Positions 455 through 63,799 of a stretch of DNA of 64,000 bases are shown here, one piece after another (position 1 is the stretch's first letter; every line of letters begins with the position of its first letter). The position numbers were made by a program, and so were the translations under genes. Source of the DNA: a virus. Lineage: Duplodnaviria > Caudoviricetes. The stretch is from IMG/VR virus record IMGVR_UViG_3300021387_000648, positions 82,459-146,458 of that record. One strand, given 5' to 3'. The notes under the pieces were generated by a model. The model made no database searches and was not told the origin of the DNA. It was given only the letters and a program-made list of their open reading frames with translations.

Positions 455-530
455 TGCGGCGTGGTAGCAGTGGTAGCTCGCTGCCCTCATAAGGCAGAGG
501 TCGTTGGTCCAAATCCAACCGCCGCAACCA
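455..530 (+). tRNA. tRNA-Met(CAT)
   Basis: Acceptor TGCGGCG/CGCCGCA, anticodon loop CTCATAA, encoded CCA; T-loop is TCCAAAT. Confidence 0.85.
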
Positions 531-682
531 TAAGGTCGGGCAGCTCCCGAATGATCTCAGTAGCTTGTCGGTGTGCCTGAGAGAGAATAACAAAGGCCTT
601 TCTGAAAACTCCTTGCGCGTGAACGGTCGTGCGCAGGCTGGGGCGCGAGTGAGATAATCTAAGAAAGGAAACCGCACAATAC

Positions 683-759
683 AGCCCTGTGGTGCAGTTG
701 GTGAACACGTCGGCCTGTCACGCCGAAGATCGCGGGTTCAAGTCCCGTCAGGGTTGCCA
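683..759 (+). tRNA. tRNA-Asp(GTC)
   Basis: Cloverleaf, loop CTGTCAC, TTCAAGT T-loop, CCA end. Confidence 0.9.
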
Positions 760-1067
760 ATACGTCTCATCTGAGCGTGGCACAACACAGTCTGTTGACG
801 CAAGGACTGTACGGGCGAAATCAGATGCCGGGGCGGGGTTACATCCCACGGAGCGTCACCGTGCTCGCAAAAAACGGACTCGGTATGTCCCAAGTCATCG
901 TGAGAGTATACACCTTGGATGGCACAAAGCGTTTAGAAGTGCCCGATCAGCCTTCTGCGCGTATCCCGGACGGTCCGGGACCAAGGACTGTGAAGAGCGT
1001 GTTCGATTCCGCGAACTCGAAGGTTCGACTCCTGACAGTGCTGGTGCAATATCAGTCCTTTTTATAC

Positions 1068-1156
1068 GCGGAATGATGCCGTCCGGCGACGGCTGCGGCC
1101 TTGAAAACCGTGGGTAGCAGAGATGCTATGGGGGTCGGCACCTCCGTTCCGCGCCA
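1068..1156 (+). tRNA. tRNA-Ser(TGA), atypical T-loop
   Basis: Acceptor GCGGAAT/GTTCCGC, loop TTGAAAA region, long variable arm, T-loop GTCGGCA, GCCA end. Confidence 0.75.
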
Positions 1157-1159
1157 GAT

Positions 1160-1249
1160 GCAGTGTTGCCAGAGCGGTAATGGGCCCGCTTGGAAAGCGG
1201 AAGCCAGGTTGAGAAGCCTGCGAAGGTTCGATCCCTTCACGCTGCGCCA
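1160..1249 (+). tRNA. tRNA-Ser(GGA)
   Basis: Anticodon arm CCGC-TTGGAAA-GCGG, long variable arm, TTCGATC T-loop, GCCA end. Confidence 0.85.
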
Positions 1250-1252
1250 GAT

Positions 1253-1342
1253 GCTTCGTTATGCCGGACGGCTCCGGTCCTTGCCTCGAAAGCAGAGGGT
1301 GCCCGATGAGGGCATGGGGGTCGGCACCTCAGCGAAGCGCCA
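1253..1342 (+). tRNA. tRNA-Ser(CGA), atypical T-loop
   Basis: Acceptor GCTTCGT/GCGAAGC, loop CTCGAAA, long variable arm, T-loop GTCGGCA, GCCA end. Confidence 0.75.
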
Positions 1343-1345
1343 CAA

Positions 1346-1420
1346 AGAGCCGTCGTCTAAGGGTAAGACACGAGGCTTTGACCCTCGTATGTGAAAGTTC
1401 GAGTCTTTCCGGCTCCGCCA
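1346..1420 (+). tRNA. tRNA-Gln(TTG)
   Basis: Anticodon arm CGAGG-CTTTGAC-CCTCG, TTCGAGT T-loop, GCCA end. Confidence 0.85.
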
Positions 1421-1424
1421 GTAT

Positions 1425-1510
1425 GGAAGAGTGGCCGAGTTGGTCAAAGGCAGCGGACTGTAAATCCGTTGGCACTGCCTACACAGGTTCGAATCCTGTC
1501 TCTTCCACCA
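1425..1510 (+). tRNA. tRNA-Tyr(GTA)
   Basis: Loop CTGTAAA, variable arm, TTCGAAT T-loop, ACCA end. Confidence 0.92.
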
Positions 1511-1513
1511 CAA

Positions 1514-1590
1514 GGTCCCATCGACTAACAGGCAAGGTCACCAGCCTTTCACGCTGGCAATGCTCGGTTCAAATCCGGCTGGGATCACCA
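1514..1590 (+). tRNA. tRNA-Glu(TTC)
   Basis: Anticodon arm CCAGC-CTTTCAC-GCTGG, TTCAAAT T-loop, ACCA end. Confidence 0.88.
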
Positions 1591-1593
1591 CAT

Positions 1594-1669
1594 GGGGTCG
1601 TAGCTCAGTTGGGAGAGCGCCTGCCTTGCAAGCAGGAGGCAGAGGGTCCGAGCCCCTCCGATTCCACCA
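1594..1669 (+). tRNA. tRNA-Ala(TGC)
   Basis: GGGGTCGTAGCTCAG start, loop TTGC, G3:U70 pair, ACCA end; T-loop TCCGAGC. Confidence 0.88.
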
Positions 1670-1672
1670 CAT

Positions 1673-1749
1673 GGTCTCTTCGTCTAAAAGGATAGGACGC
1701 AAGCCTCTCAAGCTTGTAATGCTGAGTTCAAGTCTCGCAGAGATCACCA
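1673..1749 (+). tRNA. tRNA-Glu(CTC)
   Basis: Anticodon arm CAAGC-CTCTCAA-GCTTG, TTCAAGT T-loop, ACCA end. Confidence 0.85.
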
Positions 1750-1871
1750 GCACATCTGACCGCCGAGGACGCGTACTCGGGAGATACCCGCAGATAGACG
1801 GAGAAGAAGCGGGGCTGAGCGGCACGGTGCAGACCCGACACCCGCAGGGTCCATGCCGCAAGCGGGTATAT

Positions 1872-1948
1872 GGCTCATTAGCTCAGTTGGTTAGAGCGCA
1901 CGGCTGTTAACCGTGATGTCGAAAGTTCGAGTCTTTCATGAGCCTCCA
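1872..1948 (+). tRNA. tRNA-Asn(GTT)
   Basis: Anticodon arm CACGG-CTGTTAA-CCGTG, TTCGAGT T-loop, CCA end. Confidence 0.9.
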
Positions 1949-2245
1949 CCAAGTGGCTGTGCTGCAGTGTTTGCATCGAAGCACCTCCTTTCGTAAATCC
2001 ACACGTCTGCTGGCCGTGCTTGCGCTACGGTTGTTGGATGAAACAAAGCAGAGCCGTGAACCGGAACAACGTGCGTACTGGGAACGCACGCCGGGAAATC
2101 GGCACAATACAGAACTGTTGGCTTTGATTCCTGCCTTGTACCGAAGGCTTCGGTCCCACCGAGGCGATGGATGTAGGTAGCAGCTGGGGATTATGAAAGC
2201 CGCAGACCCGATTAAAGCTCCGCGAGACGGACTATCGGGCAATAC

Positions 2246-2320
2246 AGGTTGGTGGTGTAATGGCAACATGCCGGTCTCCAAAACCGTGCGATCAGGGTTC
2301 GAGTCCTTGCCTTCCTGCCA
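2246..2320 (+). tRNA. tRNA-Trp(CCA)
   Basis: Loop CTCCAAA, TTCGAGT T-loop, GCCA end; two U-U mismatches in the acceptor stem. Confidence 0.8.
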
Positions 2321-2330
2321 AAAAGAATAC

Positions 2331-2419
2331 GGAGCGTTGGCCGAGTTGGTAAGGCACCGGATTGCTAATCCGTGGTTAGGGGCAACCCTACGAATGTTCG
2401 AGTCATTCACGTTCCGCCA
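2331..2419 (+). tRNA. tRNA-Ser(GCT)
   Basis: Loop TTGCTAA, long variable arm, TTCGAGT T-loop, GCCA end. Confidence 0.88.
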
Positions 2420-2890
2420 TTTCCGGGTAGCTGCCGGATGATGTCAGAGCAGATGCACCAGAGGCCTGACAGAGAATATGAATGGTAGACCGACCAAAGC
2501 GGGGCGGAAGCCCTGCACAAGGCCTATGGCGGTACTACAAGTGAGGGCAACGTCGAAGGAACGCGACTGATTTGTGCGGGATGGCAGACCCACAAAAAAG
2601 AACAAACACGCCCCGCTGCGGGTGACAGCGCCAAAGGAAGCTGAGACGTCCGGTTTCCGGGTCTCTCACTTAAAGCGGGGAATAGGCCGAATAAAACAGG
2701 AACTTGGCCGTAGGGCAGTGAAAGCGCGAATGCGTTGTAGCTGACTGATGATGGCAGACAGAGCAAACGGCTGTAACGACAGGACGTGTGAATTAGCCGT
2801 CTACTGAAAGGGAAAGAAATCCCGTAAAAGCTGTTTGCTCACAATTCTATATCGGATACCGTCATGCCGAAAGGTGTGGCGGTATCTTTG
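2420..2890 (+). ncRNA. candidate large structured ncRNA
   Basis: No credible ORF; nested long-range stems (2521-2527/2682-2688, 2539-2545/2665-2671, 2761-2772/2829-2840) and a terminal GAAA-capped hairpin. Confidence 0.5.
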
Positions 2891-2909
2891 CTTTGGGGAG
2901 AGAGCAGAA

Positions 2910-3158
2910 ATGAGTAAGTCGAAGGATATTCGCACGCTCTGCGCCTCCTGCAGAGCAGAATACGAGGAAGCCGGATTTGAACTGATCAAAGTCTGGGTGA
3001 AAAACAAAGAGGAATGTGACTGGTGCCGCGTGAGACTTGGATGGACCTATGAAATACGCGGAAAGAGACAACATCTTCGTAGCTCAGATGGCAAGAGCGC
3101 TGAATACTCCCAATTCAGGGGTCGCGAGTTCAAGTCTCGCCGAAGATGGACGCGATAG
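2910..3158 (+). CDS. small CxxC...CxxC zinc-ribbon protein
   Basis: RBS GGGGAG, ATG at 2910, LCASC...CDWC; the 3' part overlaps the tRNA-like element. Confidence 0.5.
   Translation: MSKSKDIRTLCASCRAEYEEAGFELIKVWVKNKEECDWCRVRLGWTYEIRGKRQHLRSSDGKSAEYSQFRGREFKSRRRWTR
3073..3150 (+). tRNA. atypical tRNA-like gene (enlarged anticodon loop, possibly Gly CCC)
   Basis: Acceptor ATCTTCG/CGAAGAT, D-arm GCTC/GAGC, T-arm GCGAG-TTCAAGT-CTCGC, anticodon stem CTGAA/TTCAG with 9-nt loop TACTCCCAA, no CCA. Confidence 0.55.
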
Positions 3159-54983: not shown

Positions 54984-55985
54984 TTGTCTGTAGCAAGTAA
55001 CGTCACGATCGTCACATTCAAACCGGGCAAAAGACACGCGATTGTAGATCCTCCGCTTTGGCAATACGACGTGGGGCAGATTTTGAAGTTCGGAGACCTT
55101 GACCTTCCTTCTGTATATGAAGTCCAGTTCTCCAACGAACCGTTCAAAGGGAAAGCCAAGCCTCAGATTGGCGGACCGGACGGGGTGGAGATCCCGAACG
55201 AATATTTCCTGTCCGGCGCTTCGATCCACGCGTGGCTGTACCTTCACGTTGGTGCGAATGACGGCGCGGTTGAATACCATGTCGAAATCCCGATCAACCG
55301 CAAGTCCGAACGCGTCGAAGAGGAATTTACGCCTGTCCAGAGAGACTTTGCGGAACAGACCCTTGCAGCGCTCACACAAGTTTCGGCAGAGGTTACGACC
55401 GCGAGAGACGAAACCATAGAGGCTGCGGAAAGTATCCTTGGCGCGGAAGAGAGAGTTGCCGCCCATGCGGATCAGGTAGCCGCAAACGCCCAAGCGGCGG
55501 CTGAATCTGAGGCCAATGCGAAAGCCTCGGAAGACGCGGCGAAACTGTCTGAGGATAACGCCAAAGTATCTGAGGACAACGCGAAGGAGTCCGAAACCAA
55601 AGCCAAGGAATACGCGGATGCAGCCAAGGTCTCGGAGGACAAGGCAAAAGAGTCGGAAGACAATGCAAAGCTGTCCGAAACGAACGCGAAGGCTTCAGAG
55701 GAAGCCGCGCAGCAGTCTCAGGAGACTGCGGCAACCTCGGAATTTCACGCTGTAGCCGCACGAAACGCGTCAGAGGAGGCGAGAGATGCCGCTTATGATG
55801 CAAGGGACCAAGCGGCGGACTATGCGGAAGCGGCGCGGCAGGTAGCGACAGAGATGGGATTTGTCAACTTCTACATTGATGAGAACGGCGACCTGATCAT
55901 GCTGAAAACCATCAATGTTACGGATATCAACTTTACTCTTGAGGAAGGAGATTTGATGTTTCATGCCTACTATCGAGGAACATGA
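54984..55985 (+). CDS. tail protein with heptad-repeat stalk
   Basis: LWQYDVGQIL baseplate-type N-terminus; (SEDNAKx)n repeats. Confidence 0.65.
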   Translation: MSVASNVTIVTFKPGKRHAIVDPPLWQYDVGQILKFGDLDLPSVYEVQFSNEPFKGKAKPQIGGPDGVEIPNEYFLSGASIHAWLYLHVGANDGAVEYHVEIPINRKSERVEEEFTPVQRDFAEQTLAALTQVSAEVTTARDETIEAAESILGAEERVAAHADQVAANAQAAAESEANAKASEDAAKLSEDNAKVSEDNAKESETKAKEYADAAKVSEDKAKESEDNAKLSETNAKASEEAAQQSQETAATSEFHAVAARNASEEARDAAYDARDQAADYAEAARQVATEMGFVNFYIDENGDLIMLKTINVTDINFTLEEGDLMFHAYYRGT

Positions 55986-58900
55986 CGGTCTCGTCGATGT
56001 AAAAACCAATCTCGGTCACGTCAGTGCCTATGCCATTGCCAAAGCTCACGGTTTTGAAGGAACTGAGGCAGAATGGGAGGCCATGATCGCAAACGCCGGT
56101 ACCTACGGGCAGCAGGCTATGGCTTCTCAGGCAGCAGCCGAAACCGCAAGAGTCGCGGCAGAAACCGCGCAGGCGGCTGCGGAAGCGGCACAGGCGGCTG
56201 CGGAAGACGCGAGGGACAGAACCGGTGAAGAACTGGCAAACAAGGTTGACGTCGTCGCCGGTAAGGGGCTCAGCAGCAACGACTATACCGATGCCGAAAA
56301 AGAAAAGCTGGCTGCAATTGAGGAAGGCGCGAACAAGAACGTCACCGTCGACTGGAATGCGACCTACGGCGACGCCTTCATCCGAAACAAACCGAGAAAC
56401 CTTGTACAAGACGAGAATTACGTCCACACAGACAACAACCTGACGGACGCGCTGTTGGAGAAACTGGAAAACATCGAGGCCGGTGGTCAGGTGAACGTGC
56501 AGGCGGACTGGACCGAGACTGACACCGAGTCCGATGCCTTTATCCGGAACAAGCCCGAAAACCTTGTACAGGATGCCAACTACGTCCACACAGACGAGAA
56601 CTTCACCAGCGCACAGAGGCAGAAGCTTCAGAACATTGAAGCCGGTGCCGAAGTCAACGTGCAGGCAGACTGGACCGCCGTTTCCGGCGACGCCGCAATC
56701 CTGAATAAACCGGAACACCTTGTCCAGGACGCAGATTATGTGCACACGGACAACAACTACACCACGGAAGAAAAGACGAAGCTTGCCGGGGTGCAGGCTG
56801 GCGCGGAAGTCAATGTGCAGGCTGACTGGGCAGAGACGGACAGCACGAGCGACGCGTTCATTAAGAACAAGCCTCTGACCGACGTAGATAACGCTCTCAG
56901 TGATACGTCCACTGATCCTGTACAGAATAAGGTCGTCAAGGCGGCTCTGGATGAAAAGGTAGATAAGGTTGCCGGGATGCAGCTCTCTCAGAACAGCTTC
57001 ACGAACGGTGAGAAAGAGAAGCTTGCGTCTATTGCAACAGGGGCAACGAATGTTACGGTTGACTCCGCAATCTCGCAGAACTCCGATAACCCGGTATCGA
57101 GTAAGGCTATCTACACAGAGCTTTCAAAGAAGGTTAATTCAAGCGGATCAAAGCAGCTTTCCGATGAAAACTTCACTTCTGAAGAGAAAACAAAGCTTGC
57201 CGGTATTCAGAACGGCGCTACCAACGTAAGCGTTGATGCTGCAATCACTCAGAACTCCAACAATCCGGTCACGAGCGCGGCAATCTACGCGGAGCTTGCG
57301 AAGAAGGTTGACGCGGACGGCGGTGCTGGGCTCTCAGACAATAATTTCACCGATGCATATAAAGAAAAGCTTGATGGAATTGCCTCGGAAGCTACAAAGA
57401 CGATTGTAGATGCTACGATCACCGAAAATTCCACGAATCCTGTTACCAGCGCGGCAGTATTTGCAGCACTGGCAACGAAAGTGGATGCGGACGGTGGAGC
57501 CGGACTCTCGGATAACAACTTCACAGACGCATACAAGACAAAGCTGGAAGGAATTGAGGCCGGTGCTAACAAGATCACGGTAGATTCCGCGACTTCCACG
57601 ACTTCCACCAATCCGGTGCAGAACAAGGTCATAACCGGAGCTGTCAATACCGAAAATACCAGAGCCACAACGGCAGAGAACGATATCAAGAACAATCTGA
57701 TTGCCGTTTCCGATACTCAGCCGACCGCTGCAACTACGAAGCTGTGGGTCAATACGAATTCTGATGAAGACACCGTCATGATTCCGACTCTGGAAGATGT
57801 GGCGGCTTCTTGGTTTGTGGATTCCGATTACAAGGCCAAGATGAAGAAGTACTTTGAATTGAGCGGCTGCAATGCAATGCAGGATCTTACCTCCATCTGC
57901 GATAAGTGGTACAGAGCGACAAGAACCGGATGGACAGGCGGTGTGAGATTTGCGGTCCCTGCTTCCGGCGCGGCAGCGAACTCAGACGGTACAAAAACCG
58001 GAGACAATGCCGGACTGACCTGCGTTCCGTCTACCACAGAACAGGCGAATACGGACGATTACAAGAACATTCCACTGTTTGCCTGTGTTGACTGCAATGT
58101 ATATCTGGATGATACCGGAAAGCCGCACATTACCGGCATTGATGGCGTCGGCGGCGTGTTCGAGCGGAACAATCCGGAAAAGATTGTCGGCGTTCTGCAA
58201 ATGGCTGGATGGGTGCGGTTCGTCAACAACGGCGAGACCTATGGATGGGACTACACCGATGAAGAGAATGCGAGCGGCTTCCATCCGTTGAGTGAAGCGG
58301 TAGAGCTTGCGGACAACTCGATCCGAAGTTGGGTTGTGCATGGCAAGTACAACTTTGGCGAGAACTGGACCTGCTGTTCCGGCGTCAAAACAAAGGTTTG
58401 GAATGTGTCCCACAACACACAGCTTTCCGGCGTTCGGACCCAGTGGGGAACAAGGTACTGCGGCGCAACGAGCGCGGATGACGCATGGCTCAAACTGATG
58501 CTTTATCTCAAATATGGTCAGCTCGATTCCGACCGTATTCTCCACGGCTGCAATAACTACAACTATGAGTACCAGCCTGCCCTTGCCGAAACCGGAGTGG
58601 AAAGAATCCTTCTCACGACCGCGCAGGCCGCGAACCTGATTGTCGGTTCAACGATTGTCCTTGCAGCATCGAAACGTGCTCAGAGCAACGTTCTGGACCG
58701 CGTGAGAATCACGGAAATCCGGACAGTCGAAGTAGATGGGGCTTCTTACGGCGCTGTTTATGTGGACAATGGCGGCACCACGTTTGATACGACAACGGAA
58801 ATGTGGCTGTCTACCATGCAGTGGTATACCGGCAGCACGGACGACGTCCTCGGCAATGACGGCGGTATCGATCCCGCCTCGGATAAGTACCCGGTCAAGC

Positions 58901-59370
58901 TTCAAGGAATTGAATACATGGTCGGATGCTACGAGGCGATGGGCGATACCATGCTGATCTACGGTGCCAACAACGGAGTGAACTGCTGCACGCCTTGGGT
59001 ATGCAGAGATGCCACAAAGCTGTCCACGAGCAAGACGAGCGATTATGTGAGCTGCGGTCTTGGCATTCCGACACCGGCCTCTGCTGCGTGGCAGTATCCG
59101 AAACAGATGCACGGAGACAATGACCTGCCAGAACTGATCTTCCCAGTAGATAACGGCGGAAGCACTTCCGGTGGCCCACGCGATGGTTTTTACACGCTTG
59201 CCAATACGAGCGGCACCTATGAGTGGCTGCGCCTCGGCACCCTGGACCACGGCGTCGGGTATGCTGGGTTGTCGTGCGGTCTCGGTGACTTCGGCCTCGC
59301 GGGCGCGAACTGGTCCCTCGGCGGGCGGCTTTCTGTAACCGGTAATAGGGGGGAATTCCAAGCGGCCTAA
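55963..59370 (+). CDS. DGR target: repeat-stalk tail fibre with C-terminal CLec-type variable domain
   Basis: VQADW/FIRNKP and NPV..K repeats; its 3' end is the VR (..GLAGANWSLGGRLS). Confidence 0.85.
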   Translation: MPTIEEHDGLVDVKTNLGHVSAYAIAKAHGFEGTEAEWEAMIANAGTYGQQAMASQAAAETARVAAETAQAAAEAAQAAAEDARDRTGEELANKVDVVAGKGLSSNDYTDAEKEKLAAIEEGANKNVTVDWNATYGDAFIRNKPRNLVQDENYVHTDNNLTDALLEKLENIEAGGQVNVQADWTETDTESDAFIRNKPENLVQDANYVHTDENFTSAQRQKLQNIEAGAEVNVQADWTAVSGDAAILNKPEHLVQDADYVHTDNNYTTEEKTKLAGVQAGAEVNVQADWAETDSTSDAFIKNKPLTDVDNALSDTSTDPVQNKVVKAALDEKVDKVAGMQLSQNSFTNGEKEKLASIATGATNVTVDSAISQNSDNPVSSKAIYTELSKKVNSSGSKQLSDENFTSEEKTKLAGIQNGATNVSVDAAITQNSNNPVTSAAIYAELAKKVDADGGAGLSDNNFTDAYKEKLDGIASEATKTIVDATITENSTNPVTSAAVFAALATKVDADGGAGLSDNNFTDAYKTKLEGIEAGANKITVDSATSTTSTNPVQNKVITGAVNTENTRATTAENDIKNNLIAVSDTQPTAATTKLWVNTNSDEDTVMIPTLEDVAASWFVDSDYKAKMKKYFELSGCNAMQDLTSICDKWYRATRTGWTGGVRFAVPASGAAANSDGTKTGDNAGLTCVPSTTEQANTDDYKNIPLFACVDCNVYLDDTGKPHITGIDGVGGVFERNNPEKIVGVLQMAGWVRFVNNGETYGWDYTDEENASGFHPLSEAVELADNSIRSWVVHGKYNFGENWTCCSGVKTKVWNVSHNTQLSGVRTQWGTRYCGATSADDAWLKLMLYLKYGQLDSDRILHGCNNYNYEYQPALAETGVERILLTTAQAANLIVGSTIVLAASKRAQSNVLDRVRITEIRTVEVDGASYGAVYVDNGGTTFDTTTEMWLSTMQWYTGSTDDVLGNDGGIDPASDKYPVKLQGIEYMVGCYEAMGDTMLIYGANNGVNCCTPWVCRDATKLSTSKTSDYVSCGLGIPTPASAAWQYPKQMHGDNDLPELIFPVDNGGSTSGGPRDGFYTLANTSGTYEWLRLGTLDHGVGYAGLSCGLGDFGLAGANWSLGGRLSVTGNRGEFQAA
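56270..57660 (+). repeat. tandem coding repeats in the tail-fibre stalk
   Basis: About four ~50-aa units (DW..DAFIRNKPENLVQDANYVHTD) then about five ~55-aa units (VD..I...S.NPV...AL..KVD..GLS.NNFT). Confidence 0.8.
59223..59332 (+). repeat. DGR variable repeat (VR)
   Basis: 110 nt matching the spliced TR with 16 mismatches, all at TR adenines. Confidence 0.95.
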
Positions 59371-59399
59371 GACGCTTGGAAGAGGGGACTTTGTCCCCT
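59356..59399 (+). promoter_or_regulatory. two hairpins downstream of the VR (DGR cis-acting elements)
   Basis: TTCCAAGCG-N8-CGCTTGGAA and AGGGGAC-TTT-GTCCCCT. Confidence 0.7.
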
Positions 59400-59447: not shown

Positions 59448-59750
59448 GTGGCTGCGCCTCGGCAACCTGAACAACGGCGTCGGGAATGCTGGGTTGTCGT
59501 GCGGTAACGGTAAGCAAATTGCCCCTTCATATGGCGACATATGATTGAACTTCGAATAACGGGGGAAGCCTAAATCTTGAAAAAGACAAGGTAATCCCGT
59601 GGCGTCAACTATGAAAATAGAACGCCCGAACGACTGACAAGAAGCATCTCTTTTGTGGAGATGATGATACAGTCTACTCCATGCGGAAACGTATGGTAAT
59701 CAGGAACAACGGCCTCACGAACGCGAACTGGAACATCGGCGGGCGGATTT
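59448..59750 (+). repeat. DGR template repeat (TR) in two exons, 59448-59511 and 59705-59750
   Basis: AAC-rich copy of the VR, interrupted by 193 nt. Confidence 0.93.
59512..59704 (+). mobile_element. group I self-splicing intron (no ORF) inside the TR
   Basis: 5' exon ends in U pairing with G in P1 (GGU|AA-GCAAA-UUGCC); P2, P4-P6, P7 GACUG/CAGUC, P8 and P9 present; GNRA loops; terminal G. Confidence 0.88.
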
Positions 59751-59974
59751 TTAGAATGATTTTGACACGAATTTGATGAGAGGCGATATGCCTCAAGCAC
59801 AATTATTCCCACGCTGCGGCGAAAATGTGTCGTTCCGGCACCGGGGGCAGTTATGAGATTTGAAACTGATCCCCGGGTGTATGACGAATAAGGTCATGCG
59901 CGGGCTTAGTAGAAAAACCGAAAGGCCCTGAGATTCAAAAAGATTCTTTGCCATTGGAGGGATAGACCTTAAAC

Positions 59975-61162
59975 ATGAAAACGTACTGCAAAAAGGTAGA
60001 TCCCTCCGATGTTTCTACGATTGAACCGTTTATTTATGATGCTTTGTATTCCAAGCTTGGCCGCAAAGACTATTCTGACTTTGTTTCAAGATACTGCGAC
60101 ATGCGCCCGAAAGAGATTCGAAAAAAGAAGCATGAAGGTATCGCGCACTATCCGGAACTGGAAAAGGCGGTCAGAAACATTGCGCTGGATATATCTTTGA
60201 GGATCAGGCAGCGGTCATTGGATTTGGAGCCTATACGGTTTTCTGTGCGCACGGATGGCCTGAGCAAGAAAACGAGAATTATAGGCATTGAGAGCGTGAT
60301 ACAGCAGATCATTGAACATGTTGCTGTCGGCTGCATGACTGAGCTTTGGAAAGCAAAGTATGAGTATCACCAGTATGCAAGTATCAAAGGGAAGGGTCAA
60401 CTAAAGGGCGCAAGGGCAATACAGAGATGGACAGAAGAGGGCAAGACAAAATACTTCGTAAAGTTGGATGTGAGAAAGTGCTTCCAAAGCCTGAGCCGCG
60501 AAACTGCGATGCGCTGGCTTAAAAGAGATATTGGGAAAAACGGTCAAATGCTTTGGCTTGTGGACTCTCTCTTGACAATGCACGGAGAAGGTCTTGTGAT
60601 CGGAAGTCTTCTGTCACAGTTCTTATGCAACTATTTTATGAGTTATGCGTATCGGTATGTGATGTCGCTTTCAAAAGAAAGACGGGGTAAGAAAATTAAT
60701 ATGGTTTCCTGTGCTCTGTTCTATATGGATGACATATTGCTGTGCAGCAATGACCGAAGAAATCTCGTCATGGCGGTAAGAAAACTGATCGCCTATATGA
60801 AGAAAAGTTTTGGACTGGACATCAAACCAGAATGGCATGTCAAGCGTCATGTGGACTGCGGCATTGATATGATGGGGTATGTGATCAAGTATAACGGCAA
60901 ACTGAGAATACGTCCCAGAGTGTTCATACGGGCCCGCAGAGCTTTCGTGCGGTCTGCAGAAGGTGATAACTCAATCAAGATTCAAACTCGCGTAGCGTCT
61001 TATTACGGCTTCTTCAAAGCAACAAGGATTATGAAGCTGAGGACGGTACATTTTATTCCGAAAACCGGAAAGAGACGAACAGTCAACGTCCGGGCAATGC
61101 AGAAGAAATCAGCTATACTGACAGGTGCAGAAGCAAGGAGGGAAATGGAATGCGCTGCATAA
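59975..61162 (+). CDS. DGR reverse transcriptase
   Basis: KLDVRKCF, GLVIGSLLSQ (DGR-type SQ motif), YMDD, IDMMGY; adjacent to the TR. Confidence 0.93.
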   Translation: MKTYCKKVDPSDVSTIEPFIYDALYSKLGRKDYSDFVSRYCDMRPKEIRKKKHEGIAHYPELEKAVRNIALDISLRIRQRSLDLEPIRFSVRTDGLSKKTRIIGIESVIQQIIEHVAVGCMTELWKAKYEYHQYASIKGKGQLKGARAIQRWTEEGKTKYFVKLDVRKCFQSLSRETAMRWLKRDIGKNGQMLWLVDSLLTMHGEGLVIGSLLSQFLCNYFMSYAYRYVMSLSKERRGKKINMVSCALFYMDDILLCSNDRRNLVMAVRKLIAYMKKSFGLDIKPEWHVKRHVDCGIDMMGYVIKYNGKLRIRPRVFIRARRAFVRSAEGDNSIKIQTRVASYYGFFKATRIMKLRTVHFIPKTGKRRTVNVRAMQKKSAILTGAEARREMECAA

Positions 61163-61479
61163 GTGTATCTGCTGAGAAGCAGAAAGATGTTGAAGTAAAT
61201 ATCTTTGATGGAACTGCGCACATCTATCTCAGAACCGGTCATGTAGAAAAGACCGGCGAAGGTGAAGGCTCTGAGGGCGGAAACTACTGGGAATGCGAAG
61301 AGGCATATATGACCTGCGATGCGGATGACGCTCCGGCAATTGATGAGATCGGAGAAGCGTTTGACGCGTGGTTTGGTTATGTGTCTGACTGGCAGGCACC
61401 GAAAGAGAAGACCCTGAAAGAGCTTCAGGCAGATATCGAATATATAGCGGCAATGTCCGGTATTGATTTGGAGGTGTAA
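61150..61479 (+). CDS. acidic tail-associated small protein
   Basis: Ends ADIEYIAAMSGIDL, a pattern typical of the gene preceding XkdX. Confidence 0.6.
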   Translation: MRCISVSAEKQKDVEVNIFDGTAHIYLRTGHVEKTGEGEGSEGGNYWECEEAYMTCDADDAPAIDEIGEAFDAWFGYVSDWQAPKEKTLKELQADIEYIAAMSGIDLEV

Positions 61480-61837: not shown

Positions 61838-63799
61838 ATGGCATTGGAGTTCAAAAGAAACAAGCTCAATGTAAAAGACGGAACCGGTACATTCGTTGAG
61901 ATTCCAGTTCTCGGTGAGCAGGAAACCGAAAAAGCAACTGCCGGTGAGCTCGCAATTGAGGTAAGCAGAGCGACTGCTGCAGAAGATGCTCTTGCAGAGC
62001 AAGTCAGCCGTCTTCAAAAAGTGGTGGGTTCTCCGTTCGTTGCGAACACTGCTGCGAGCATGACAAACACTGACAGAGTGTATGTGTATACCGGCAGCGA
62101 ATCGGGTTATACAGCGGGCAATTGGTACTACTACGACGGCAGCGCTTGGGTGTCTGGCGGTGTATATAATTCCGCAGGAATGAATACTGACACGACGCTT
62201 GCAATGGCCGGAATTCCTGCTGACGCAGAAGCCACGGGAGAAGCGGTTGCTGAGTTAAGTCGCCATTTAAGTGACTCAATCACTAAAACAGTAGGGAAAA
62301 ATCTACTGAACACAGATGTAGCGGTTGATGGCTATTTAAATGCAGACGGTACTATTCATGCAAATTCTTCGTCACAAGATTGGAAAACATCTGACTTTAT
62401 CAATGTCAATGGGCAAGAATCTATTGCGTTTTCTTACGATAATAACGGTGTAAGAGCGGCATTATCTGTAAGTTTTATAACGCTTTACGATGCGGAAAAA
62501 CAAGTTAATGAACAGTTAAGTGGGATTAAATCTGTGCTCGCTATATCAAGCGGTACAAGTTATATCAGATTCAGCTATCACAGCACATTTTCTGATATTA
62601 TGGCTGAGTTTGGAGAGTCTTTTACAACTCCTTATGAACCCTATGAAGAGTTTACTGGGCTTGTAAACAGCCTTTATCCGACGCTTGACCAAACAAAAAC
62701 AGCACTTGCGGATGGCAAATTCCTCAACAATGAATCCGTTAGCGAAAAACAGACGTCTTTCATTCAGAGCGTGGAAGGTAAAAACCTTTATACAGGAGAA
62801 AATGAAGTTGATGGATATTTAAACGCAAATGGGACTATTCATGCAAACAGCTCATCAACTGACTGGTTGACAACAGATTTTATTAACGTTGCAGGAATGG
62901 ACTATATCACATTTAGTGCTTATGTTCTGTCAGTGAACCGCAGGGCGAAAGTTAACATGCATTTCCTCTGCGTGTATAATTCCGAAAAAACGATTATTGA
63001 ACAGGTATCCGGCAATCCAAAAACATATGCTGTAGGTCAAAATGTCGCATATATCAGATTTAGTTATCATGGCACACTTTATGAAGATATACAGGTTGAA
63101 AACAACAGTGACATGACAGGATATGAACCGTATGCGCTGTTTAATGTATTGAAAAACGCTTTATATCAGTCATGGGTTGATAAAAAGTGGACTGTTGTTG
63201 GTGATTCATTGACAGAAGTAAACAGCAGAACAGACAAACATTATTATGATTACGTTTCTGAAGAAACAGGAATCAATGTTCACATAATGGGCGTTGGTGG
63301 AACTGGTTATATCAGAGGGCAAGGCGATAATAATGCTTTCTATCAGCGCATATCATCTGTGCCGACAAATTCAGATGTCATTACTATCTTTGGCTCATTA
63401 AATGACCTTGGGTCAGGTGCAGAACTTGGTACAGCGGACGATACTGGCACAACAACAATAGGTGGGTGCATCAACACAACACTTGATAATTTGTTCGCTG
63501 TTATTCCACTCGCAAACGTAGGAATCGTTACACCGACGCCGTGGAATGGCAATGGCTATGCACCTATTGATGAACCAAACAACGCATCTAACTATGTCGA
63601 TCTGATAAAGGCGATTTGCAAAAAGCGTTCAATACCATGCCTTGATTTGTTCCATGAATCTCTTCTCAGGCCGTGGGATTCTACATTCAGACAGCTTGCA
63701 TATAGCAAGGACGAAGGAAGCGGGACGCACCCGGACGAAAACGGTCACAAGCTGATAGCACCACGATTCAAGGGATTCCTTGACACTCTGATTATTTAA
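61838..63799 (+). CDS. tail-type protein with C-terminal SGNH/GDSL hydrolase
   Basis: VYVYTGSE.GY..GNWYY N-terminus; duplicated GKNL..YIRFSYH domain; GDSLT, G.ND, GTHP. Confidence 0.85.
   Translation: MALEFKRNKLNVKDGTGTFVEIPVLGEQETEKATAGELAIEVSRATAAEDALAEQVSRLQKVVGSPFVANTAASMTNTDRVYVYTGSESGYTAGNWYYYDGSAWVSGGVYNSAGMNTDTTLAMAGIPADAEATGEAVAELSRHLSDSITKTVGKNLLNTDVAVDGYLNADGTIHANSSSQDWKTSDFINVNGQESIAFSYDNNGVRAALSVSFITLYDAEKQVNEQLSGIKSVLAISSGTSYIRFSYHSTFSDIMAEFGESFTTPYEPYEEFTGLVNSLYPTLDQTKTALADGKFLNNESVSEKQTSFIQSVEGKNLYTGENEVDGYLNANGTIHANSSSTDWLTTDFINVAGMDYITFSAYVLSVNRRAKVNMHFLCVYNSEKTIIEQVSGNPKTYAVGQNVAYIRFSYHGTLYEDIQVENNSDMTGYEPYALFNVLKNALYQSWVDKKWTVVGDSLTEVNSRTDKHYYDYVSEETGINVHIMGVGGTGYIRGQGDNNAFYQRISSVPTNSDVITIFGSLNDLGSGAELGTADDTGTTTIGGCINTTLDNLFAVIPLANVGIVTPTPWNGNGYAPIDEPNNASNYVDLIKAICKKRSIPCLDLFHESLLRPWDSTFRQLAYSKDEGSGTHPDENGHKLIAPRFKGFLDTLII

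Follow-up and report, generated by a model that had tools for sequence, protein, structure and literature searches.

Introduction

The closest described counterpart of the locus analysed here is an engineered one. In the DGR of phage BPP-1, a T4 td intron placed in the template repeat (TR) was spliced out before cDNA synthesis, according to PMC5703328, which also credits the td-intron experiment with showing that the DGR template is RNA (Guo et al., 2008, reference 6 of Naorem et al., 2017, PMC5703328). The rumen phage locus resembles this construct in that a group I intron lies within the TR and only the ligated exons reach the VR or the cDNA. It differs in that the arrangement is natural, occurs in three lineages and many wild genomes and is known from sequence; its TR introns are unrelated to td, 183–193 nt long and without an ORF, and unlike the BPP-1 DGR it has no detectable Avd. 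With canonical phage DGRs (that of BPP-1, arranged mtd-avd-TR-brt, and those of gut and rumen phages) the locus shares a reverse transcriptase (RT) with IGxxxSQ and YMDD motifs, adenine-only differences between TR and VR, a VR located 3' in a tail gene, a TR with many AAC codons and a repeat that is GC-rich at its 3' end, but its TR is split by 193 nt and its gene order is target-TR-RT, with no avd found. Group I introns in phage structural genes, some ORF-less and some with an endonuclease, were the closest relatives by sequence that the searches gave; those of contigs L169, L167 and L180 have the same core sequence and fold as the TR intron; they interrupt protein genes and leave an mRNA, whereas the TR introns interrupt a non-coding template of reverse transcription.

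An earlier note on this DNA had described the arrangement and knew of no natural case. A full-text literature search likewise found no natural group I intron in a DGR template, only the engineered td-intron work, but the phage is not unique, as two further lineages (L271 and L278) also carry such an intron. Here we document (i) the anatomy of the locus, (ii) the fold and covariation of the intron, and (iii) the presence of the intron in all copies of the species examined, together with VR hypervariation at adenine sites on both sides of the intron junction. We consider it highly probable that the locus is a natural intron-in-TR DGR, in which self-splicing would be followed by adenine-mutagenic reverse transcription and then by replacement of the VR.

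Sequence Data and Searches

The window, i.e., the whole stretch of DNA that was analysed, makes up the final 64 kb of an IMG/VR phage record of 146,458 bp, which is 92% complete (146-kb genome). The stretch was present in approximately 19 DNA runs of ruminant gut or rumen from 12 studies, and RNA runs were absent from the listing of runs that contain it. Nine loci (L261-L269) from eight further assemblies, two of them from one assembly, and representing several ruminant studies, were fetched via close relatives of the target protein. A metagenome scan gave one contig, L261, which has the same haplotype as run X3 and is not independent of it.

Intron homologues in other phages were searched for using pattern scans and nhmmer; the 14-mer pattern scans of viral contigs yielded mostly chance matches. 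Covariation was assessed by pair counting on an alignment of eight homologues (52 pairs), an earlier version of which had included four sequences.

Genomic Organization of the Locus

The features of the locus are as follows:

55963–59370, + strand: DGR target gene (ORF, 1135 aa), a probable tail or tail-fibre protein
59223–59332, + strand: VR, a 110-nt gap-free match to the spliced TR
59356–59399, + strand: two hairpins just 3' of the VR, spanning the stop codon, read from the sequence
59448–59511, + strand: TR exon 1 (5' part of the TR), with the last letters ...AACGGT, placed by the VR alignment
59512–59704, + strand: group I intron without an ORF, 193 nt, recognised by RF00028 and covariation
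59705–59750, + strand: TR exon 2 (3' part of the TR), starting with AACAAC and with the GC-rich end GGCGGGCGGATTT, placed by the VR alignment
59751–59974, + strand: spacer between TR and RT, kept among relatives
59975–61162, + strand: DGR reverse transcriptase (395 aa), identified by Pfam RVT_1 and PHROG

The VR is located within the last 50 codons of the target gene, at its 3' end. The N-terminus of the target matched PHROG tail and tail-fibre families, phrog_17147 spanned residues 634–1134, and the adjoining ORF (54984–55985) matched many tail-fibre PHROGs; the Pfam search returned no domain in the target gene, and the cluster of the L261 target protein in the protein collection had a single member. 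For the last 220 residues AlphaFold gave a poor model, and at a pLDDT of only 51 no claim of a C-type-lectin fold is made for the C-terminus. The hairpins 3' of the VR have stems of 9 bp (59356–59381) and 7 bp (59383–59399). A similar pair is located 3' of the VR in L271 and L278, and the hairpins may be a target-recognition or terminator structure of the DGR. The spacer is 70–97% identical to those of L001-L015 and 70% identical to that of L271; by analogy with BPP-1 (PMC5703328) it would probably be the 3' part of the DGR RNA and the site of cDNA priming.

The RT matched Pfam RVT_1 at 5e-15 and the PHROG reverse transcriptase at 1.6e-49. Hallmark motifs of DGR-clade RTs are I/LGxxxSQ and YxDD, and the window RT carries IGSLLSQ and YMDD, which places it in this clade. 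Neither a second TR nor a second RT was found in the genome, and no sigma-70-like promoter was found upstream of the TR. The search for Avd (PF05635) in the 146-kb genome, which is 92% complete, was negative, so that the DGR departs from the textbook composition; Avd is frequent in DGRs and not universal among them. An acidic ORF of 109 aa (61150–61479) overlaps the stop codon of the RT gene and is kept at the same position in relatives (106–109 aa), where it is followed by a Phage_XkdX gene. Searches of PHROG, Pfam and PDB gave no match for this ORF, which does not resemble Avd.

Elsewhere, 13 tRNA genes form an array on the + strand of the window (456–3148). One region of this array (1067–1153) is a long-arm tRNA that scored 49 bits with the tRNA-Sec model against a cut-off of 47, and is possibly a misassigned tRNA of the Ser or Leu type. 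Downstream of the DGR, a virion or tail-fibre-like protein of 653 aa (61838–63799) has a C-terminal GDSL lipase/acylhydrolase domain and would probably act as a surface-polysaccharide deacetylase or esterase in adsorption.

Match Between the Template Repeat and the VR

The VR (59223–59332) was aligned with the two TR parts (59448–59511 and 59705–59750) over 110 nt with 0 gaps and 16 mismatches. All 16 mismatches were at TR adenines, of which the TR holds 23, with 6 before the junction and 10 after it, exactly as the earlier note had counted them on either side of a 193-nt insert. At the non-adenine positions the window VR was identical to its own TR (87/87), including the lineage-private TR substitutions and the T at position -1. 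The TR-adenine sites all fall at codon position 1 or 2 of the VR codons, the TR codons are AAC-rich, and the homology between TR and VR ends at both outer flanks. The locus thus has adenine-confined TR/VR differences and a VR at the 3' end of the target gene, as expected of a DGR.

The insert is exactly 193 nt long. Since the intron and exon 2 both begin with AA, the alignment allows the insert to be placed in three ways, and 59512–59704 is the only one with U at position -1 and G as the last intron base, in agreement with the U.G wobble and the terminal G that had been proposed for this junction. At 59329, after the GC-rich GGCGGGCGG at the repeat's 3' end, VR and TR have a fixed difference, with C in the VR of all haplotypes and A in the TR; the difference looks like the distinction between IMH and IMH*. 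Every VR, i.e., those of the window, the species haplotypes, L271 and L278, corresponds to the two TR parts joined without the intron. The split arrangement is not due to chance because it recurs in eight other assemblies (nine loci) and in two further DGR lineages.

Fold and Covariation of the Intron

All of the helices from P1 to P9 listed in the earlier note were present:

59509–59513/59519–59523, + strand: P1
59527–59544, + strand: P2
59550–59553/59641–59644, + strand: P3
59559–59563/59596–59600, + strand: P4
59568–59592, + strand: P5 and P5a
59601–59626, + strand: P6
59632–59636/59670–59674, + strand: P7
59645–59663, + strand: P8
59679–59696, + strand: P9
59704, + strand: terminal intron base G, placed by alignment

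The minimum-free-energy fold recovered every P1-P9 helix except the P3/P7 pseudoknot. The search with covariance models, a check that the earlier note had proposed, gave a match to RF00028 at 59502–59696 that covered the full model (positions 1–253) with 37.2 bits, which is below the Rfam gathering score of 50, and a scan at the gathering threshold gave no RF00028 match. The E-value was 7.5e-8 in a search of 701 nt and 3.8e-9 in the whole 146-kb genome, where the intron was the sole RF00028 match. The L268 intron scored 39.5 bits with the same model, and the L271 intron had no match at E ≤ 0.01. In the catalytic core the window reads GACUGA...GAUACAGUCUA, compared to GACUAA...GAUAUAGUCU in the RF00028 consensus, and the conserved core sequences of P4, P7 and J8/7 are present.

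Among the eight homologues 97.1% of the pair cells were paired, compared to 35–45% when the partners were slid by 1–3 columns, and 23 of the 52 pairs had changed on both sides. Compensatory pairs numbered two in P3 and six in P2, and P7 was invariant. The U59511.G59521 wobble at the 5' splice site was present in all eight homologues, and the introns end in GG in six TR introns and in L169 (the 3' end of L272 being ambiguous). Judged by its sequence and fold, the insert 59512–59704 is a genuine compact group I intron within a genuine DGR template repeat.

The six intron polymorphisms among the species haplotypes are all in loops or preserve pairing. Four are in loops: one base substitution each in the loops of P1 and P8, GCGA to GUGA in that of P2 and loss of one A from that of P5a. 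The other two are in stems, A-U to G.U in P2 and C-G to U.G in P8. The intron neither contains nor adjoins an endonuclease gene; approximately 78 kb separate it from the single HNH of the 146-kb genome, in which HNH_3 and GIY-YIG were not found. The motif GGTAA occurs twice in tandem register (59503–59507 and 59509–59513), and the intron guide could also pair 6 nt upstream, at the cryptic copy 59503–59507. Splicing at this cryptic site would remove two codons in frame; such a form was absent from all 110-nt VRs.

Homologous introns outside DGRs were found in other phages. In L169 (3902–4419) two group I introns are located in tandem in a tape-measure-like gene (PhageMin_Tail), L167 (2996–3797) has two introns beside an HNH ORF of 187 aa, and L180 (4493–6323) has an ORF of 252 aa inside the intron, between the conserved blocks of the P5 side and the P4' side. 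Tandem pairs of group I introns in one tail-gene region are thus seen in related phages. Further homologues were located in L202, L270 and L272. The TR introns group apart from all of these, with 83–87% mutual identity and, judged from the alignments, clearly lower identity to the others.

Variation of the VR in Phage Populations

Contigs from three studies span the VR, TR exon 1, the intron and TR exon 2 with 0 indels, and their differences are concentrated in the VR; for the X7 contig approximately six differences are unlisted, so that invariance of the TR and intron is only partly established there. Among L261-L269 the intron was located at the same site wherever the contigs reach the TR, and was 193 nt long, or 192 nt in two loci. 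The nine haplotypes comprised eight distinct VRs, and 22 of the 23 TR-adenine sites were variable, many of them with three or four alleles, the 23rd being 59329. Each haplotype had 11–17 TR/VR differences at adenine sites and 0–1 at other sites. Variation at the 87 non-adenine sites was confined to three sites that vary in step with the TR substitutions of L268/L269 and two singletons. TR exon 1 was invariant in the seven haplotypes of the window lineage and had three substitutions in L268/L269, which are echoed by the VR. The variants were hence specific to adenines and located on both sides of the junction, as the earlier note had proposed to verify by read mapping, and the populations show ongoing hypervariation of the VR at adenine sites next to an invariant TR.

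Rewriting of the VR was also evident between very close genomes. Outside the VR, 10 of 5551 sites distinguish L264 from L266 (99.8% identical), and the two have in common a private one-base deletion in the intron; their VRs are distinguished by 17 sites, of which 7 belong to the exon-1 side and 10 to the exon-2 side. Because VRs vary at adenine sites on both sides of the junction even in such near-identical genomes, the DGR is very probably still functional, by way of a TR RNA that has been spliced.

Contigs that skip 59512–59704 were not found in any DNA run. Short contigs of X20, the single run labelled metatranscriptomic, were considered as candidates for the spliced form and rejected, as their joints contain 42–44 unlike letters; these contigs read as TR or VR copies of divergent intron-less relatives.

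Intron-Less Relatives and Further Intron-Bearing Lineages

Intron-less TRs, which the earlier note had suggested looking for, were found in related phages. The TR is contiguous (...AACGGC/AACAAC...) in twelve IMG/VR relatives with RTs 61–84% identical to that of the window, and likewise contiguous and intron-less in four relatives of a second lineage. The junction reads GGC/AAC in the TR of all intron-less relatives that are readable there (15/15), and the C before the join is also found in the VR of those with a VR that was checked (11/11); GGT/AAC is found in every intron-bearing TR and its VR. The T at position -1 supplies the U of the wobble pair at the splice site. Two contigs are uninformative on the intron, as L001 (99% RT identity) starts at the boundary of TR and spacer and L277 (98% identical to L271) at the first base of exon 2; these breaks suggest that assemblers fail at the repeat and that intron-bearing TRs are under-recovered. 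In L010 the copy at the TR position (2687–2796) is altered at many adenines and has 11 VR mismatches at non-adenine positions, and is probably a VR/TR swap or a chimera of assembly.

Two further lineages have homologous TR introns at the same AACGGT/AACAAC site. L271 (69% RT identity to the window) is an IMG/VR contig that was found by the motif scan, comes from the same sample series as one of the intron-less relatives and has an intron of 187 nt. L278 (71% RT identity) was found in a genome scan, on a contig placed in the bin of a water buffalo Oscillospiraceae MAG, and has an intron of 183 nt. Of the 15 adenine sites in each, 14 (L271) and all 15 (L278) are changed in the VR relative to the spliced TR, on both sides of the junction. 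Across the three lineages the TR introns are 83–87% identical and the flanking RT and spacer 67–70%; the RTs are intact, and the VRs match their own TR at 99–100% of the non-adenine sites.

In the RT tree the intron-bearing members are scattered among intron-less ones, with a minimum of three changes of state, and monophyly of the intron-bearing RTs was rejected (p-AU 1e-42). The scattered placement implies repeated entry of the intron at the same TR site, several precise losses, or recombination of TR segments between phages; we infer that the intron either moved between DGR templates or was precisely lost several times. The suggestion of the earlier note that the intron is a parasite in a safe site fits this distribution. 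Between the window and the L268 lineage divergence was 1.6% in the intron and 2.7% in the TR, compared to 6–13% in the flanks (dS 0.5–0.7), and the low divergence of the intron indicates that the TR-intron segment was exchanged recently, is very strongly constrained, or both.

Proposed Mechanism

In the mechanism proposed here, the DGR RNA would be transcribed in the order TR exon 1, intron, TR exon 2 and spacer. In P1, the exon GGU would pair with the guide GCC, with the U.G wobble at 59511/59521, and the intron would remove itself from the TR RNA, with G 59704 as its last base. The predicted ligated TR RNA would read ...GCGGTAACGGT joined directly to AACAACGGCC..., the RT would copy it with adenine-specific errors, and the cDNA would replace the VR at the 3' end of the tail-protein gene. 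Removal at the RNA level, by self-splicing ahead of reverse transcription, is the part of this scheme that we infer from sequence comparison. Because cDNA synthesis starts 3' of the TR, rewriting on the exon-1 side needs the joined TR parts as a template, and a spliced TR RNA would be the simplest source of such a template by analogy with the td-intron experiment (PMC5703328).

Alternative Explanations

Splicing could also be rate-limiting and act as a regulatory gate, through folding of the ribozyme, GTP or Mg2+, which would give the intron a function for the phage beyond parasitism. Retention of the intron in three lineages and the pairing-preserving nature of its polymorphisms agree with such a role, and so does one pair of haplotypes. 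The window and L262 differ in 4.8 kb at nine VR sites and one other site, a SNP at 59352 (region 59287–59352). All nine VR differences are in the part derived from exon 2, beginning with the base that directly follows the junction, and the adenine sites 5–6 nt upstream are unchanged; the crossover lies no more than 4 nt from the intron site. This single case could represent a partial retrohoming tract that ends at the intron site, or a short recombination tract; cDNA from unspliced or 3'-cleaved RNA could account for the former, but with the SNP at 59352 nearby plain recombination explains this one pair equally well. Most close relatives have no intron, and the scattered distribution fits a selfish element. 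A gating function therefore appears unlikely to us, though it is the alternative that fares best. Its most elaborate form, in which a TR-adapted intron lineage spreads among co-infecting phages and unspliced or 3'-cleaved RNA rewrites only the exon-2 half of the VR of a splice-gated DGR, is similarly doubtful.

It is far less probable that the intron inactivated the DGR, and that the VR alleles are relics from before the insertion while the intron-bearing TR spread later by recombination or homing. The divergence of intron and TR between the window and L268, far below that of the flanks, would fit a recent lateral spread, and at least three changes of state are needed on the RT tree. In principle, recombination among strains may have reshuffled alleles of old date to give the VR diversity, and the intron may have spread after that; the VR could have had its T at -1 before the intron arrived if a T is a prerequisite of insertion. 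Against this, the nine assemblies have eight different VRs that differ only at TR-adenine sites. The turnover of the VR between L264 and L266, at 17 sites in near-identical genomes with a common private intron allele, makes it unlikely that the VR predates the insertion, as the earlier note had allowed. Further, the introns of the three lineages have diverged by 13–17%, yet their RTs are intact and each VR matches its own TR. RT dN/dS was 0.07 (window vs. the intron-bearing L268 lineage), i.e., the RT is under purifying selection. The explanation by old shuffled alleles is strained by the number of alleles, by the strict adenine-site pattern that follows the TR of each lineage and by the intact RTs.

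Rewriting of the VR without any splicing, either by a jump of the RT over the intron via the AA microhomology or by cDNA supplied in trans from the intron-less TR of a co-infecting relative or of a minority intron-less variant, is likewise very improbable. In its favour, AA is repeated at both intron borders, and intron-less DGR relatives are present in the same samples, where they appear as short TR-like contigs that have unlike flanks. Against it, the window VR matches its own TR at all 87 non-adenine positions, and all known intron-less relatives differ at 9–19 positions; contigs that skip 59512–59704 were not found in any of the DNA runs; and there would be no need for the ribozyme core to be conserved with compensatory changes.

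Implications

A DGR with a self-splicing intron in its TR thus remains the favoured reading of the locus, and has consequences for the detection and use of DGRs as well as for their biology. Such elements will be overlooked or cut short by DGR-finding software that relies on an unbroken TR/VR alignment. Splicing also suggests itself as a ready-made switch with which engineered DGR mutagenesis could be made conditional. The locus is the natural counterpart of the classic experiment that proved the RNA template of DGRs. The history of the intron includes at least three gains or losses at one site, and a DGR template, which is conserved, transcribed and untranslated, can house a selfish intron. 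Since the VR records the ligated exons, wild genomes show that a ribozyme step can precede targeted hypermutation.
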